This document shows, in pieces, positions 15,340-57,695 of a stretch of 64,000 bases of DNA. Origin of the DNA: Leucoraja ocellata. Lineage: Eukaryota. The position numbers and the translations under genes are program-made. The notes under the pieces were generated by a model, which saw nothing but the letters and a program-made list of their open reading frames with translations, was not told the DNA's origin and searched no databases. Where the stretch lies: NCBI GenBank assembly GCA_036785375.1, contig JAWMAR010000033.1, positions 3,286,001 to 3,350,000 on the forward strand. The letters run 5' to 3'. Position 1 is the first letter of the stretch. Every line of letters begins with the position of its first letter.

Positions 15340-15725
15340 CTAACCCTCCCTCCCCCCCCCCCCCCCCCCCCCTTCACCTTTCTCCCGTGCCCCACTTGGA
15401 CTTGCACCAATGTCTCCCCTCCTCCACCCCATCCACCTACGTTGGTTTCTGTAGCGTTATAACTCTTCAATCCGCAACTCTTCAATCCTTTTATCTCACA
15501 CTTTCTGTCTTTTCATCTCTGGCCTTTGTCCAACCATCTCCCTATCAAATAACCCTCCTCATCTGTGTTGACCTATCACCTGCCAGGCTTTGTCATGCCC
15601 CTCCTTCTTCCTGTTTCTATTTTACCCCCACCACTACAATCAGTCTGAAAAAGGGTCCCAACCTGAAATGTCACCTATTCATGTTCTCTTGAGATGCTGC
15701 CTGACCCGCTGAGCCCCTCCACCAG
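15340..15725 (+). mobile_element. Penelope-like element 3' region with degenerate hammerhead-like motif
   Basis: Pyrimidine-rich tract then cagtctgaaaaagggtcccaacctgaaatgtcacc...gagatgctgcctgacccgctgag, the same tail as the GIY-YIG element at 56670-57695. Confidence 0.7.
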
Positions 15726-32432: not shown

Positions 32433-34875
32433 AAATGCATTTAAGGAGTTGGTTTACATTAGAAATAACAAATTTGTGATTATGATCTTGGAGTAATGTG
32501 CAGTTGTGGGATTAACACCAAATAATGCATTCAGTGGATCACCGCGTCATACATCATTAATGGTCACCTAACCTTTGCCAAACAAGTCTATGACCCTTGA
32601 CTTTGGAAGAACAAAAGCAGAGATTATTCCATGGATAAAGCTGAGATCATTGATTCATTGATCACCAGTGAAATGTTCACTGGTGATCAATGAAAAGCCA
32701 AGGCAAAGAAATTGTGTTTCCAAACAAGCATGCTCAACAAGCATGAAATGGCACTTTGATTGGTGGTAGGAGGAGCACCTCCTTGGAGGTAGCCACGTGT
32801 AGGAGAGACAGGAAGATTATAATGAAAAGAGGACAGTGAAAGTGATGGGAGCTGAGATTAAAATGTAAAATCAGTGAAGGTAAGTTGTTGCTTACGGCAG
32901 ACAGTAATGTTAAATTAAATGGCATATTTAAAATAATTTGCGGATCATTGGGACATTTTTGTTAGTTAAATTAGAAACACTGTTCCTTAAGTTAAAGCTC
33001 TGTATATTTCTGCACTCTGCTTTCAATGAGAAAGAAAGCAATGCTGTAGCTGCAGGTTATTTCACACAGGCAGCTCATGTCACTCAGTGGACTGTTCAAG
33101 CAGCAGTGCAGTATGCACCATATTCCAATACTGTATGTACTGTGCAAAATCTGTACATTCTCACCTGTCAAAACTGTTCAGCTGTGATTCCTTTTTTTTT
33201 ATTGTCATTAATGGCTATAGTTGGTTCTGAGTAAACAGCCTGAAGGTAAAAGCAAACTAAATTAGCTGCAATTTATTTGTGTGTTGGCAACGATGAAAAT
33301 TAAAAAGATATTTATAAATTTGCTGCAGTGGGTTATTAAATTATAATAATGGCCAATTTGTCATGAATCCAGTTACTAGAATATCAACTGGAGCTCCTAT
33401 TAAAAACATTTTAATCTAATTTGTATTCTATTTTTGATGTGTTTTCTTTAAAGAAGTCTATAGCTTGTTTAAAGTCTGGCACCTCTACTGATTGTTAAAG
33501 AGCTGCCACGAGAGCTGCCAAAGCTGGGATGCCACATTATTTCTCTGGGATGGCTCTAGGTATCCAAACGATAGTAACAAAAGTCTCTGGTTATTGTGTT
33601 CATTCAAATTTTCAAGAACAGATTCAGTGGATTTTAATTAAATGCATGAATCAAGGAATATGGAGCAAAACTGGGTGAATGGAGTTTGGGTCCAGAGAGG
33701 AATTATTTATTTGAATGAGGAAATGCACTCATGGGGCAAAATGGGGTAGGTTTTCTCTCGTCAAATACCCCCTGTGATTTGACTTTCACAACCACCTGAG
33801 GTACAGTACATCGGAGATTCTCCACCCCTGGTCAATGCCCGATAATGTGTTGCTCTCAATAGCTCTTGCATCCCCAAGTTTAGTGTTATCCACACCTTGG
33901 AAAGAAGAGGTTTGGTGGAAATTCTGGCAAAATGGGTTGAAGGCATGGTTGCTGCTGATGGTCAGAGTTGTGTAAAGCTACTATTGGTGAAATGGGTTCA
34001 AGTGTGATGAAGGATGAACCGTTTCAGGTTGGAACTGTGCATCATGCATCTATTTTATGGATGGCAAGTGCTGCAGGCACAGCACGCCCGTGGCAATGGA
34101 AATGCAGATGGTTTACAGGTTACTAATCAAGCCTATTGATTTGCCCTGAATAGCATCGAGTTTTATGAGAATAGGTGAGGCTTAATGAATTATGTACCAA
34201 GTTCAGGTGAATGCCATCAGTGACTTTGATATAAGAGATCTGTCTACTATAGTACTTTGCTTCATATAATTAACTTGCATCTACCTTCAGTATCACCATT
34301 GTATCTTTGTCCATTCATGTGTATTTGATTTCTTGCTTGTACAGGGTATCAGTATAAACACAAATATTGTAATATTGATTTTTGTTTGCTTTGGTACTTC
34401 TAAATCCATGAAATAATCTTCTCACTTGTTCGTTCTTGCATATTTGTGGACATCTAAACCACTACAAAAGTGATTTATTGTTTGCCTAATCTAGTTTTAG
34501 TGTTAAGTATAACTGTGTGTTGACTTTAGATTAAATCAACAAACCACTGATTCAAATTATGCATTGAGGCAACAAACTAGAAATACCAGAAATACCAGAA
34601 CCATTCTTGAATGTGGCAATCTGTAAGTGGATTGAAGATATGTTTCAGTATCTCATTCATGCTGGCTGACACCAGTATTCAAATGGTTAATTGAGTATTT
34701 CATCAATTAACAATCTAATTTGTTTGAAATGCTTAATTTGAAAAGCATCATTGTTTCTCAATTTATCATTTCAATATTAATGCTAATTACAATTAGAAAT
34801 AGTCAAAGCTCATTTAAACTGATTCCTGCGGAATGTTCTTTTAAATAACACCAAAAAAAAATCCCTCATATCTCT

Positions 34876-34978
34876 TACCTCAGTCTGAAGAAGAGTTTCG
34901 GCTCGAAACGTCACCCATTTCCTTCGCTCCATAGATGCTGCTGCACCCGCTGAGTTTCTCCAGCATTTTTGTGTACCT
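34876..34978 (+). mobile_element. ~100-bp Penelope-derived insertion carrying a minimal hammerhead-like motif
   Basis: cagtCTGAAGAa-GAG-tttcgg-CTC-GAAAcgtc plus PLE tail. Flanked by tccctcatatctct (34862-34875) and tccctcttatctct (34979-34992), a 14-bp TSD with 1 mismatch. Confidence 0.8.
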
Positions 34979-36269
34979 TCCCTCTTATCTCTGGTTGCTG
35001 GATAAACCTACATTATTTGTACCTTGTTAGCAATAATTATTTACTGCTGCATATATTCTAAATTGATTTGTGTTCACTGATTTCCATTTCTTTCATTTAG
35101 CTTTCTACATCTATTTCAAAGTAGCACATTGGAGTCACTTCTTCTGGACTGTTTAATACCTATGCAGTTAACTTGCACGTTTCTACAATTTAATGGCAAA
35201 ACATTTCTTATTTCATGGTTTATGCTGTTCACAATTGCAATTTGCCCTTTCACTGAGGATTCCATTGACAAAATATTATCAAGATGTTGAAGATGTTATT
35301 GACAGCATTTTGAAAAACATGAGGCTTTCAGTACTCACCTTTACAAAATGATAAAGTTTATCTCTGTATTTGTGCATTGGTTGGTGTCATTGTGGTATCG
35401 TTACATCACACACTCAAAGAAGACGGAATGGCCCATAGTATCAATAAAACAACATATAAGCCTTGGAATTTAAAGAATTTATCCAAATCCCTTTGTAAAT
35501 TATTATTGTATGATTACACTGTCCATTTTGCCAATGAATTTTCAATTATATCTTTCAATTTCTTTGATTCTCTAATTAATTATCTTAAAGACACTTTAAA
35601 TAACATTCTGTTCAATAATATGATTGCATTCTATCAATGTAACTTTTCATCAACTGCTATTCAATACAGAATTTTCCAGTATATATTCACCATTTCAATT
35701 ATTTTGCCAGCCCTCCTGTCCCTCTATTCCCACCCCCCCCCCCTCCCCCTCCTCTCTCCCTCCTCACCTCCCCACCTGCTCCTCCCTCTCCTTCCCTACC
35801 CCCTCCTCTCCCTCAATCCCCCAGTCTCCCTCCTCACCTCCCCACGACGGCGATGAAGTTGTACTTGAGGTGGGGGAGATGGGTTAAAGGGGGGTGGGGT
35901 GCGAGCGTCCTGGAGCCAGGGGAGGGCTTGAGGTGGGAGAGATGGGTTAAATGATTTCAAACCAAATGCAGTACAAGTCAGACACAGTGAAGGAGAACAG
36001 CTGTGTTCTGGTGCATTTAACACATCATGGTAGATATTGGTGTATGTTATGCTTGTTTTGCAGGTGTAAAACAGGCACTAAGAATACCAATTTAGTAGTG
36101 GGTTGATGTGTGCAGGTGCTAGTCGCACTTTTAATTTGAGACCGCCAATTTTATTTTCAAGGTGCATCCAAATGGGGTTTAAATTAATTCCGTGCGTTAA
36201 TGAAGAGTTTGTTTCCAAGTTGTGAGGCACGCATAATAAAAAAGTAACATAGTGAGAATAAGCACGATG

Positions 36270-36647: not shown

Positions 36648-38205
36648 TATAGCGAGACACACGTTTGAGAACAAAGTGATCTTTATTGGCAGATGCAGGG
36701 TCAGACACTTGCGCGCTGAGAGTGAGCACTAGCGGAGTACTTGGAGTTGCAGTTGGGCACACCCGTGACTCATGACGTCATCTTCCCGGCAAACGCAGTC
36801 ACCTGCCCAATACAGTTCGATCTTTCACTGGCCTAACCACCAGATGGCGCCAAATGACCCTCTCCCACCCCCCCCAGAACCGGAGTAACGAAAATGAACA
36901 TGCAGACGAATGAGGTGCTGCCCTCTCACATTGACTAGCAGGGATTGAGCCAGGAGGAAATCGGCACCCAGTAATGGCTGGGAGACATCAGCAATGGTAA
37001 AAGTCCAAGTAAAATGGCAGGAGCTGAAGATGAGAGGGACCATGCGAACTCCATACGTCCGGATGGAGCTGCCATTAACCACGGCAACGGAAGGTCCCTG
37101 CTTACCAAAACCAGTGTCAAGTCCTGACGTGGGCAAAACGCTGACTTCTGCGCCCGTGTCGAAGAAGAGCTGCCCTGAATGACTGTCCCAGGCATAGAGG
37201 TGATGTTTCAGGCCGAACGCAGTAGCCACTACTGGCGGCCGGCCGAGGCGTTTCCCGAAAACGTGCAGGGTGGGCGGCATCGACGGGCCTCCGAACCCCA
37301 GCGCTGGTGATAGAAGCATCACGACTCCTTACCAGTGTTGCTCGCGTCCGGCTTCGCAGCCGAACCCCAGGTGGACACAGTAACTGGCTGCTGCGCCCAC
37401 TGAGGCACCGCCGTCACCCAGTCGATAGCAGCACCGCCCTGCTGTTTGGTCCGCCATAGGTCGTCCACCCGTTCAGTCAGTTGCAGGGGATCGTTGAAAT
37501 TCTCCATTGCAACGAGTAGTCGAATGTCCTCGGGCATCTGCTCCAGGAAAGCGTGCTGAAAAACGACTGATGGCCATCCATCAAAGTGAGCATCTCGCTC
37601 ATCAACACGGACGGCTTGCGATAACCGAGACTCCCCCCAACGTGCATGAGCCTTGCCGCCCGATCGCGGCGGCTGCGGCAAAGGTACGCAGGAGCTCCAT
37701 GTGGCCCTCGTACTTGTTGGCAGCTGCCGGCTGGCGCAGGAAATGTACGAGGTGACCGGCTGTACCCTGATCCAGCGTGCCGACCACATAATAATACTTT
37801 GTGTCGTCGGCCCTAATGTGTCGAACATGGAAAAGCCTGCTGGAACCTTACCTTTGGCTGTGATGTCTAGAACACCGGCAGCTTGAGAAATACTGCATTC
37901 TGTTGAGCCGGGATGTCGGCTGCTTCGGGTTGCTGAGGTAGGTTGTTGGCTGCATGCATTGTGAGAATCTAAAAGAACCGTTTTGGATCGTCGGGGTCAC
38001 CAATACAGCGTTTGAGAATGAAGTGATCTTTATTGGCAGATACAGGGTCCGACACTTGCACGCTGAGAGTGAACACTAACGAGTCCCTGCAGTTGAAGTT
38101 GGGCACACCCGTGACTCATGAGGTAAACTTCCCGTCAAATGCCTGATCCAGTTCTACTAACGAGGGTTTGATCTATCACTGGCCTAACCATCTGATGCCG
38201 CCACA
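36648..38205 (-). mobile_element. Internally deleted Ty3/Gypsy LTR retrotransposon (gag and protease only)
   Basis: Two ~200-bp direct repeats (36648-36853 and 38004-38205). Minus strand has a gag-like QNAVFLKLPVF*TSQP...FLEQMPEDIRLLV and an aspartic protease FFDTGAEVSVLP...NGSSIRTYG...ADVSQPLLGADFL. A polypurine tract (plus-strand ccctctcccacccccccc) abuts the 3' LTR. Confidence 0.88.
37989..38002 (-). promoter_or_regulatory. Primer-binding site complementary to the tRNA-Trp 3' end
   Basis: Minus strand TGGTGACCCCGACG lies just inside the 5' LTR and is complementary to ...CGUCGGGGUCACCA of eukaryotic tRNA-Trp. Confidence 0.8.
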
Positions 38206-38459: not shown

Positions 38460-38561
38460 AGGTCGACACTAAAATGCTGGAGTAACTCAGTGGGACAGGC
38501 CGCATCTCTGGAGAAGAGTAATGGGTGATGTTTCGGGTCAAGACCCTTCTTCAGACTGAAT
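38460..38561 (-). mobile_element. ~100-bp Penelope-derived insertion with hammerhead-like motif
   Basis: Reverse complement reads tcagtCTGAAGAa-GGGTC-tt-GACCC-GAAAcatcaccc plus PLE tail. Perfect 10-bp TSD ctagaatatt at 38450-38459 and 38562-38571. Confidence 0.8.
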
Positions 38562-38797
38562 CTAGAATATTCACTGCCATCGCCCTTGTGCTCCACCGTA
38601 TCATAAAAATGCTTTCTTGAAAAAGGAAGAGGTGAACCAAAACAGGAGAAGTCTTTAAATAGCTACAAAGAATTATCACTTCTAAATGTGCAGCGGGACC
38701 ATGCATCAGAATTCATGTGTCTTGTATCAGAATTTATGATTACTGGCAATTGTAACACTGTATTTATATGTTGGAATTCAAAGAGTCAAAACACTTA

Positions 38798-39022
38798 ATG
38801 CCCCTGTCCCACTTCGGAAACCTGAACGGAAACCTCTGGAGACTTTGCGCCCCACCCTAGGTTTCCGTGTGGTTCCCGGAGGTTGCAGGTAGTTGCCGGA
38901 GGTTGCAGGTGGTGGAAGCAGGTAGGGAGACTGACAAAAACCTCCGGGAACCGCACAAAACCTTGGGAGGGGCGCAAAGTCTGCAGAGGTTTCCGTTCAG
39001 GTTTCCTAAGTGGGACGGGCAT
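38798..39022. mobile_element. MITE, second copy of the 2750-2964 family
   Basis: Same TIRs; the central spacer is the reverse complement of that in copy 1. Flanked by ttaa on the left and taa on the right. Confidence 0.8.
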
Positions 39023-43430: not shown

Positions 43431-43600
43431 AAAGATAGACATAAAGTGCTGGAGTAACTCAGCTGGTCAGGCAGCATCGCTGGAGAGAAAGGTCACCCAT
43501 CCTTTTGATTTGATCCTGAAATGCTTCCTGACCAGCTGAGTCACTCCAGTACTTTGTGTCTATCTTCGGTATAAACCAACATCTGCAGCTCCCTTTTACA
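43431..43600. mobile_element. Penelope-derived inverted-terminus (hairpin) mini-element
   Basis: ~46-bp arms aagatagacataaagtgctggagtaactcagctggtcaggcagcat / atgcttcctgaccagctgagtcactccagtactttgtgtctatctt with 4 mismatches. Perfect 11-bp TSD catccctgtcc at 43420-43430 and 43601-43611. Confidence 0.8.
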
Positions 43601-51897: not shown

Positions 51898-52080
51898 TCA
51901 AGAAGGAACTGCAGATGCTGGAAGATCGAAGCTACACAAAATTGCTGGAGAAACTCAGCGGGTGCAGCAGCATCTATGGAGCGAAGGAAATAGGCGACGT
52001 TTCGGGCCGAAACGTCGCCTATTTCCTTCGCTCCATAGATGCTGCTGCACCCGCTGAGTTTCTCCAGCAATTTTGTGTAC
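51898..52080. mobile_element. Penelope-derived perfect palindrome (73-bp arms)
   Basis: 51933-52005 is the exact reverse complement of 52007-52079 (1-nt spacer). TSD cctcataatgtgt (51885-51897) / cctcatattgtgt (52081-52093). Confidence 0.88.
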
Positions 52081-53604
52081 CCTCATATTGTGTCGCCATT
52101 TAAGATGATCATAGAGCAGCTGTGGTTAAATTCGTGGAGTTGCTGCCTCAGCTCCTGTTCAACGAACTTAGCAATAACATCTGAAAATGGTGCCACATGA
52201 TCGCTATTTTCAAATCCATCGACTTAGGTTCCTTCCTGTCTGTGTACAGTTTGCAGGGTGTCTCTGCGACCGGGTGGCTTTCTTCAGGGCTTGGGTTTCC
52301 TTATACATAACAAAGATGGGTGGATTGGATTGGAAACTACATATTATAACTGTTTCACAAATCTCCGCTCCTACGAAGCTGAAAGCAGTACTAAAGGTTA
52401 CATGTTATATCATATTGCCGCAAATGCTTAATTGAAAAAGAGGGTCAATAGCTGTACTGCAAATAACTGAATATTTCCACGTAGAGGGAAATTCCCTGGA
52501 TTTGTACATAAATAGTTACACTAAGCATATTTAAACTTGAGGTATATTGGAGCAGCATAATCCAATTTCTCACTTCCTACATTAGCAGTTAAATATCTTT
52601 AAACATTTGTTTAGTCTGAAGTTTTATTTTTGACTTGTGGCTGGCAAATTAATGTATTAGATAACTGTTAATGGTTCAACAGTGATGTTTGAAAGTAGTT
52701 TCTTCACCACTGCGCAAAGGAATCACATCTTATTCTCCCTTTTACTCATATTTTCAGCTCTTGTCTTTTTGTGAACGTATTCATATCTTGCAAGATATTT
52801 GTAAGTTCAAGGGTCTTTTATTTTAATGGGTGTGTACAAAGTTTGAATGGCAACTAGCCTTCTGGTTGTATGAGGTGTCACTTGTGTTTCCATCCAACTG
52901 AGGTTATTGGTTATTGGATCCTGATGTTTAAGAAGGAACTGCAGATGCTGGAAAATTGAAGGTAGACGAAAATTAAAATCCTTGGATTTGCAAATTATTG
53001 CAAATAATAATGCAAAATATTGGATGCTGAAGTGGGTTTATTGGAGTCAATTAACAGCATTACAACTGGAGTTGTGGCTAAGATGCATCAACTCATCAAG
53101 AATTACTATATCATTCCAAAACTTAGTCATGTTGGCCATGAAATCTGACCACCAATATGAGCAACAACAAATGCCAGCCAATTTGCTATTTCATACTTCC
53201 TATCCCCCAAAGTTAATTTTCATCCCACAGTACATCATTCATAAACCATATAATTGAACCGGTGTACATATTCCACTAAACATGAATACCTTGTTGAAGA
53301 GGCCTGTGAATCATTTACAATTATTGCTGATAATGGAAGAGCTCTTGGACTGCAAATCTGAGGCCAAAGCACGGTTTATTTTCAATGGCAGATGTACAAA
53401 GTTCAAGATTGTCATGAAAACTCAAGACCGTCTTCTTCAATTATGAACCATCAACTGTTTTGGCCTTGTGTTACTGTAAAATATCACAGTCTGTACACTC
53501 TCTAAATACATAATTGTATGTATTTACAGAGTGGAAGTAACACTTTAAAATCAATTAGTTCCAGGGATTAGTATCAAGCGCTCCAATTTCAAACAAACCA
53601 ATGG

Positions 53605-56669: not shown

Positions 56670-57695
56670 CTCTTCTTTTACCAGGTCATCGGAGATGTCT
56701 TCATTCTTTAGGAAACCGAGGTTCCCCTCTTCCATTATAGATGGGGCTCTCAATAGGGTCTCCTTGATATCCCGCAGCTCCGCACTTGCTCCCCCTCCCC
56801 CTAGTCATAACAAGGACCAAGTCCCCTTGTCCTCACCTTCCACCCCATCAGCTGCCACATACAGCATATAATCCTCCAACATTTTCGTCACCTCCAACGG
56901 GACCCCACTACTGGTCACATCTTCCCACCTCTTTCTGCTTTCTGCAGAGACCATTCCCTCTGCAACTCCCTGGTCAACTCGTCCCTTCCCACCCAAACCA
57001 ACCTCTTCCCAGGTACTTTCCCCAGCAATCGCAGGAGCTGCAACACCTGTCCCTTTACCTCACCTCCATCCAAGGACCCCAACAGTCTTTCCAGGTGAGC
57101 CAGAGGTTCACTTGCACCTCCTCCAACCTCATCTACTGTATCCGCTGTTCCAGGTGTCAACTCCCGCACATTGGCGAGACCAAGCGCAGGCTCGCTGATC
57201 GTTTTTTGCTCAACGCCTCTGCTCAGTCCACCTTAACCTATCTGATCTCCCGATTGCTCAGCACTTTAACTCCCCCTCCCATTCCCAATCAAAGGCCAAA
57301 GGACATTTATTGTCACATACACCAATTGGTGCAGTGAAATTTGAGTTGCCATTTGAGTTTTTAATTTGACCTTTCTGTCCTGGGCCTCCTCCATTTTCAG
57401 TGAGGCCCAGCGCAAATTGGAGGAACAGCACCTCATATTTCGCTTGGGTAGCTCACTTCTCAGCGGTATGAACATTGACTTCTCTAACTTCAAATAGCCC
57501 TTGCTTTCCCTCTCTCTGTTCTTTCCCCTTCCCAGTTCTCCCACCAGTCTTACTGTCTCTGACTACATTATATCTCTGTCCCGCCTACTACCCTGACATC
57601 AATCTGAAGAAATGTCTCGACCCGAAACGTCACCCATTCCTTCTCTCCAGAGTTGTTGCCTGTCCCGCTGAGTTATTCCAGCATTTTGTGTCCAC
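56670..57695 (+). mobile_element. 5'-truncated Penelope-like element (thumb/linker, GIY-YIG endonuclease, terminus)
   Basis: SEMSSFFRKPRFPSSIIDGAL, a CxxC-type linker, and FTCTSSNLIYCIRCSRCQLPHIGETKRRLADRF (GIY-YIG), with frameshifts. Ends in ctgaagaaatgtctcgacccgaaacgtcacc plus tail. Confidence 0.9.

Follow-up and report, generated by a model that had tools for sequence, protein, structure and literature searches.

The insertion at 34876-34978

The window, that is, the whole stretch of 64,000 nucleotides of Leucoraja ocellata DNA that we analysed, holds an insert of 103 bp (34876-34978) between two 14-bp copies of a target-site duplication (TSD) that differ by one mismatch (Table 1). This duplication is the top-scoring repeat flanking the insert, and of 300 random window positions 1 gave an equally good score. 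From left to right, the insert consists of 4 junction bases, TCAGT, the hammerhead core CUGAAGA, an extra A, GAGU-UUCG-GCUC, GAAACGUC and a further 66 bases. Signed positions are counted from C3 of the hammerhead, window position 34885 being 0. Leaving the junction aside, 34894 and 34903 are the sole positions at which the insert departs from family copy L014. The junction bases and the next T are also the last five bases of the insert, and an identical 5-mer lies at +89 of the element; given this repeat, TACC is possibly template-switch filler. The TCAGT at the edge is Inr-like and likewise resembles a CAG acceptor. From its sequence, stem II is better read as a 4-bp helix, GAGU/GCUC, which would close a UUCG loop.

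Table 1. Features of the insert and of related copies elsewhere in the window
Feature	Position	Strand	Basis or remark
TSD, left copy	34862..34875	+	repeat search; chance 1/300
Junction bases TACC	34876..34879	+	1/4 match copy L014; unlike family upstream sequence
TCAGT, -5..-1, family 5' edge, 5' strand of 2-bp stem I	34880..34884	+	end mapping
Hammerhead core CUGAAGA (34885-91) and extra A (34892) between A9 and G10.1	34885..34892	+	sequence; PMC4209133
Stem II GAGU-UUCG-GCUC	34893..34904	+	private transitions against the family: G>A at 34894, C>T at 34903
GAAA and palindromic ACGU replacing stem III; predicted cleavage after C34912	34905..34912	+	sequence; PMC4209133
3' portion of pLTR up to inner RT start site A (+94); 36-nt tail absent	34913..34978	+	end mapping
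TSD, right copy	34979..34992	+	repeat search
Copy of related, more diverged PLE family (first comparator for stem II)	38466-38559	-	80% identity; ACGU mutated to ACAU
Two-armed head-to-head copy, same family, centred on stem II palindrome	51922..52084	.	tail on one arm, beyond coordinates
Further copy of related diverged PLE family	57593..57691	+	80% identity

Much of what a preliminary description had said about the locus stands. The TSD and the motif, including GAG/CUC and the GUC ending at 34912, are as it described them, and the origin from a Penelope-like element (PLE) is borne out by family identity and by a parent element with RT and GIY-YIG. It was right that the insert begins a few nucleotides before the core and measures about 100 bp, but not that it ends after the PLE tail: because its end, +94, is the inner of the two 3' ends of the family, the insert lacks the tail. 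Similarly, stem I is indeed only 2 bp, but the extra A, taken for a defect, is normal in PLE minimal hammerheads (PMC4209133). Finally, the GAG/CUC of the insert had been set against the GGG/CCC of a copy near 38460. This copy does carry GGG/CCC (stem and loop, GGGU-CUCG-ACCC) but belongs to another, more diverged family. This second, older PLE family, with stem II GGGU/ACCC, is represented in the window at 38466-38559, 57593-57691, 43432-43567 and 15640-15724, and several of its sampled copies appear by eye (they were not counted) to begin at the same edge despite different upstream sequence.

The parent family and its known relatives

A 29-mer from the 3' part of the insert has 23,448 exact matches in the 3.44-Gb genome, over which all exact-match counts were taken, and its reversed control has 0. 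Many contig C1 loci are 97-99% identical multi-kilobase pairs (L037/L041, L115/L117, L099/L101), that is, segmental or haplotype duplicates, and raw copy counts are inflated as a result. Upstream of long copies we found RT and GIY-YIG frames joined by a Cys-rich linker. In Pfam searches the long copy L136 scored just below the gathering cut-offs for both RVT_1 (E=5e-6, score 26.7 vs 29.6) and GIY-YIG (E=2e-4, score 22.2 vs 22.6). The order of the domains, RT and then a C-terminal GIY-YIG, is that of EN+ PLEs, and the Zn-finger-like Cys motif between RT and EN is that of Neptune. Such a linker is common to Neptune and Nematis (PMC8557442), and by its sequence the one found here would be of the Neptune/Nematis type.

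Walking upstream led to the N-terminal region of the ORF, on which 30 further loci were picked. In 8 of these (two pairs being duplicates) the hammerhead and tail continue into the ORF start, and the insert therefore corresponds to the pLTR end of an autonomous PLE. The family shows the partial tandem arrangement pLTR-ORF-pLTR, the 3' pLTR being found in other copies and not in the same stretch, and an optional tail of 30-40 nt between two discrete 3' ends, at the inner of which the focal copy stops. Full-length elements of the family are also present in this genome. The focal insert is very probably an end-piece of this PLE and not a separate SINE, and as such it is ordinary, one of tens of thousands of short PLE end-pieces.

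Most of the 30 ORF-start loci (L274-L303; for example L290, L293, L296 and L284) are miniature partial tandems, in which a first unit running to about +198..+290 is joined to a pLTR at about -165..+21 (in a few, +98) and followed by the end of the element. These junctions imply that the ORF was internally deleted, leaving units of 200-400 nt that resemble retrozyme precursors. The ORF-start 29-mer itself has 123 matches genome-wide and no more.

Metazoan PLE pLTRs carry minimal type I hammerheads, or min-HHR (Cervera and De la Pena 2014, PMC4209133). The family shares with them the conserved CUGANGA core, an unpaired base 9/10.1, the G10.1-C11.1 pair and a palindromic 15.2-16.2 in place of helix III, here ACGU, as well as the occurrence of thousands of dispersed single motifs, interpreted in that report as truncated PLEs. 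Its stem I of 2 bp is like that of D. virilis, compared with 4-5 bp in S. mansoni (PMC4209133). On the other hand, the copy number here (38,840 exact 25-mers) is far above the one reported for min-HHR, and the sharp 5' edge analysed below is not described in the text consulted from that paper. PAc, a Poseidon PLE of Anolis, is primed internally at two sites, with both strands cut and extended, and hammerhead cleavage is dispensable for its insertion in vitro (Frangieh et al. 2024, PMC11167929). As in PAc, two internal RT start sites define the tail of our family and the hammerhead lies just upstream of them. PAc differs from the family, with its Cys-rich linker, in being a Poseidon element, and the text consulted on PAc treats neither 5'-side cDNA ends nor arms that always use different start sites.

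Insertions of EN+ PLEs (PMC8557442, PMC3846280) resemble those described here in their 5' truncation, partial tandems, head-to-head arms, TSDs and solo pLTRs, and an Inr-like word is recorded in a rotifer pLTR in the same sources. There, a tail of 30-40 bp is often found on one end, whereas here it is on one arm in 38/38 two-armed insertions; moreover, most copies here are short and edge-bounded, and the two arms agree in length. Non-LTR retrozymes (bioRxiv 10.64898/2026.07.22.740005) are, like the insert, non-coding, derived from PLE pLTRs and endowed with a type I hammerhead, but they are tandem units with at least two hammerheads. The insert has a single motif, no second cleavage site and no separate lineage, and it does not run from cut site to cut site. 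The motif, its link to PLEs, the dispersed single motifs, the tails, the inverted arms and the solo pLTRs are already in print (PMC4209133, PMC8557442, PMC3846280, PMC11167929, PMC6765202). Our literature search, which covered passages of main texts, retrieved no paper that describes a hammerhead-associated 5' edge or arms of matching length.

Ends and arms of the copies

Copy ends were mapped in 164 loci (0.92 Mb), using a query whose whole length lies downstream of the cut site. Of the 283 hits obtained, the family filter retained 214; sufficient flank was available for 212, and 190 of these were unique. The 3' ends group around +91-99 and around +123-133, in agreement with the pair of internal RT start sites in PMC11167929. 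For the 5' ends, the unbiased sample comprised 70 non-inverted copies, whose loci had been picked by the 3' 29-mer or at random. Among its 58 edge-reaching copies, 32 end at -9..0 (5.5% per nt), compared with 1/26 at -30..-10 and 5/25 at -179..-31 (0.13% per nt). These figures support the earlier statement that the insert is not a random truncation. When core-selected loci were added, 58/122 copies ended at -9..0 and 13/59 over the 149 nt from -31 to -179. The density at the edge is thus 30-40 times the upstream rate per base, and about half of the single-arm copies begin 0-9 bases before the core. Repeating the analysis on 60 loci from contigs C2-C17 gave 35/56 solo arms ending at -8..0 and 15 long ones. 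Over 188 solo arms, short copies outnumber long ones (101 edge, 67 long). A TSD was found in 37/64 edge copies but in only 5/186 mismatched controls, with a modal length of 14 bp. The breakpoints and TSD lengths in these samples, which the preliminary description proposed to plot for all genomic copies, show non-uniform 5' ends, two 3' clusters and a 14-bp TSD mode.

At higher resolution, edge copies begin most often at G(-2), where 32 of 121 matches stop, rather than at the Inr A(-3). This count used edge copies only, since de-duplication had removed long and inverted ones, and a few of the 121 belong to the related diverged family. An extra G before G(-2) is weakly enriched (14/32, p=0.03, one of several such looks). 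The 5' junctions are ragged, with a filler peculiar to each, and edge copies have no common upstream word, the top 8-mer occurring in 5/121. Four of the 30 ORF-start loci, representing three independent cases, extend beyond the edge by 200 nt or more on the upstream side, and only about four start at the edge or slightly inside it. In RNA reads from organisms not shown to be this species, 88-97% of the reads continue into dissimilar sequence. In 2/3 RNA runs both strands cover the short unit to the same depth, the loose ends at -2, -3 and -5 repeat the pattern of the genomic copies, and no splice joint above threshold is found among the matches listed.

A second census, of two-armed insertions, covered 224 loci (1.2 Mb) with 289 arms, 264 of them unique. 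It contained 38 head-to-head pairs, 28 short/short and 10 long/long; none was mixed, where 14.7 were expected (p=8e-9). Furthermore, an end at site A was paired with an end at site B in all 38 (p=4e-12), so that exactly one arm bears the tail in every case. Excluding the 10 pairs that are symmetric on a palindrome, 0/28 were mixed against 12.9 expected. A looser earlier pass had listed a long arm beside a 43-nt inverted fragment (L145) and a borderline pair classed as mixed (L258). Since mixed pairs are missing although both start sites are used, it is likely the template, and not random stalling, that sets the length, and the pairing argues that both arms are copied from one template position. 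Mixed events could nevertheless escape notice if annealing of a short cDNA at the edge palindromes were followed by trimming of the long arm. At 51922-52084 in the window, a sub-threshold Rfam miRNA hit is spurious, arising from the hairpin of the two-armed copy.

Stem II, cleavage and the origin of short copies

The proper comparator for the focal stem II is its own family. Exact 25-mer counts genome-wide (39,634 in total) are 38,840 for GGG/CCC, 387 for GAG/CCC, 394 for GGG/CTC and 13 for GAG/CTC. Each single-change class is thus about 30 times commoner than the compensated double (together, 781 singles vs 13 doubles), and no compensated stem II pair was seen among 59 sampled copies. The covariation announced in the preliminary description is therefore not a feature of the family, and a covarying stem II, as looked for in a PLE minimal hammerhead, was not found beyond a mild excess of doubles. 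Under independence 3.9 doubles are expected, so that the 13 observed represent a roughly threefold excess (p=2e-4). The 13 copies fall at 11 independent loci on differing subfamily backgrounds, which rules out a single master. Age spread is insufficient as the whole cause, as it raises the expectation only to 5.3 (interval 0.89-1.91 fold) and leaves p=0.02 for the 11 loci. A non-partner control pair gave 4 observed vs 3.4 expected, and the comparison of partner with control gave p of about 0.05. The excess is small and borderline, in favour of the preliminary description, and could stem from hairpin-templated repair or weak selection. Core positions mutate like neighbouring DNA (9/589 vs 36/1710, p=0.49). 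In the focal copy, the double change is best explained as two post-insertion transitions.

These two changes weaken the predicted stem II of the focal copy (-3.0 vs -5.1 kcal/mol). A rival hairpin that would hide GAAA is predicted to be more stable (-4.8 kcal/mol) and is preferred in the monomer fold prediction (pair probability 0.79). Folding z-scores were unremarkable, and an Rfam scan of the window returned no hammerhead family at E<=1, minimal motifs not being expected to score. The insert starts about 30 nt upstream of the predicted cut site and, across the family, the edge does not lie at the cleavage site, where a ribozyme-released unit would end; a hammerhead-bounded unit is thus not supported. 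Only 3/70 copies start at the cut site (+28/+29); they account for 3 of the 7 ends that fall between +11 and +44 (post hoc test, p=0.006). These copies, L069, L083 and L084, begin as the predicted hammerhead cleavage product would. With a test chosen after viewing the data, this is a hint that a few templates were cleaved. In the focal copy, the hammerhead is likely a passenger and the copy itself is likely dead.

The best reading of the short copies, which we consider fairly probable, is that internally primed cDNA runs off the 5' end of the element RNA and integrates. The element's own enzyme would likely cut the target, reverse transcription would begin about 95 bases inside the RNA, and the cDNA would run off the RNA 5' end just before the hammerhead motif, at -2..-7. 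Priming in the 5' pLTR would leave about 100 or 135 nt to the RNA end and produce a short copy, and priming in the 3' pLTR would produce a long, randomly truncated one. The RNA end itself may be a transcription start at the Inr-like TCAGTC, a word that we take to resemble an initiator. The near-constant start base of the short pieces likely marks the RNA start of the element, and for this RNA-end step we hold a slight preference only. Several observations sit uneasily with run-off. A strict start site does not predict the ORF-start loci that pass the edge unless read-through RNAs exist, and the commonest first base is -2 instead of the Inr A(-3). Mixed two-armed events may be hidden by trimming, though their deficit holds without the symmetric cases, and the compensated double is about threefold over chance. 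In addition, transcription of D. virilis Penelope starts about 120 nt upstream, the hammerhead edge being a splice acceptor (PMC2377424, PMC4209133).

The edge might instead be a truncation hotspot on a long RNA, at which RT stalls or is displaced by the end of stem I, by the C-rich tract after it or by snap-back at the TCAG-T-CTGA palindrome. The edge does fall on a palindrome and on the 5' strand of stem I, a fold-back T at -6 is present in 14/39 copies with TCAG at -5..-2, and some ORF-start-bearing copies pass the edge. Yet independent stalls would have produced the mixed pairs that are missing from all 38 insertions, and the longer palindrome at +10..+24 has no comparable peak in single-arm copies, so that we regard this explanation as unlikely. 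Less likely still is that the edge is a 3' splice site (polypyrimidine tract and CAG), as in D. virilis Penelope, and that short copies come from spliced or splice-processed RNA. Here the sequence offers CAG at -4..-2, a pyrimidine tract and, at -93, the branch-like CCTTAAC, the base use of short copies at -4..-2 resembles exon-end base frequencies, and concordant arms would be explained too. The D. virilis intron also ends at helix I (PMC4209133). Contrary to this proposal, edge copies have no common exon-1 word (top 8-mer, 5/121), for the single donor examined (+161) the junction finds 0 matches in the genome, and there is no 5'-end peak at the branch-like site (1/13 long ends). A back-splice or ORF-skipping junction to this donor-like site, and an RT stop at the branch-like site, were rejected on the same counts, the former for this donor only.

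The preliminary description had proposed a discrete SINE-like unit bounded by hammerheads and mobilised in trans. In its full form this would be a non-autonomous unit that has master copies of its own and whose integrity selection maintains. Ends clustering within about 10 nt, two fixed 3' ends, TSDs and the predominance of short over long solo arms are what such a unit would display, the excess of compensated doubles over expectation and over the non-partner control points the same way, and non-autonomous PLEs exist (PMC8557442). What speaks against it is the lack of a lineage of its own, within an alignment of 96 columns and 117 rows whose power is limited. Indeed, none of 15 polymorphic sites separates short from long copies (smallest p = 0.013), and all 8 haplotypes with n>=5 contain both, in differing proportions (one has 12 long and 3 short). 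On a tree of the 117 copies the short/long label changes 31 times vs 33.4 +/- 2.5 when shuffled, 42/200 shuffles doing as well. Short and long copies also agree in divergence (2.7% vs 2.6%) and in their use of the two 3' ends (34:21 vs 32:21). No short-only subfamily is thus seen within this alignment, and a separate SINE lineage is not supported. Together with the ragged, individually filled 5' junctions, the lack of a common upstream word and the lack of purifying selection on the core, this makes such a unit quite improbable.

Returning to run-off of internally primed cDNA, a general form of it can be put forward tentatively, as somewhat less than an even call: PLEs may make 'strong-stop'-like cDNA, both cut strands being primed close to the 5' end of a single RNA, at two fixed sites, and extended to run-off at the hammerhead edge, most insertions here would be these 100-135-nt products, and long copies would come only from priming in the 3' pLTR. 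The stubs, tens of thousands in number, would therefore map the transcript start and record the replication cycle. Taken singly, the focal insert has little weight: it is genuine but ordinary, belongs to an element of a known kind and leaves a footprint that is useful for the mechanism. Statistics over the family matter for how PLEs make inverted arms, tails and solo pLTRs and for the purpose of the hammerhead, and they make testable the RNA start, the use of one template for both arms and any use of cleavage. That the motif stays uncut in most copies bears on whether cleavage is used at all. For annotation, such stubs should be filed as PLE ends, and neither as a new SINE nor as evidence for ribozyme selection.

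Two near-perfect palindromes of about 210-230 bp, MITE-like and mutually alike, lie in the window at 38794-39020 and 2754-2961, one of them giving a sub-threshold Rfam miRNA hit. On the minus strand, frames at 36825-37996 resemble gag and an aspartic protease, which we take to be the remnant of an LTR-type retroelement.
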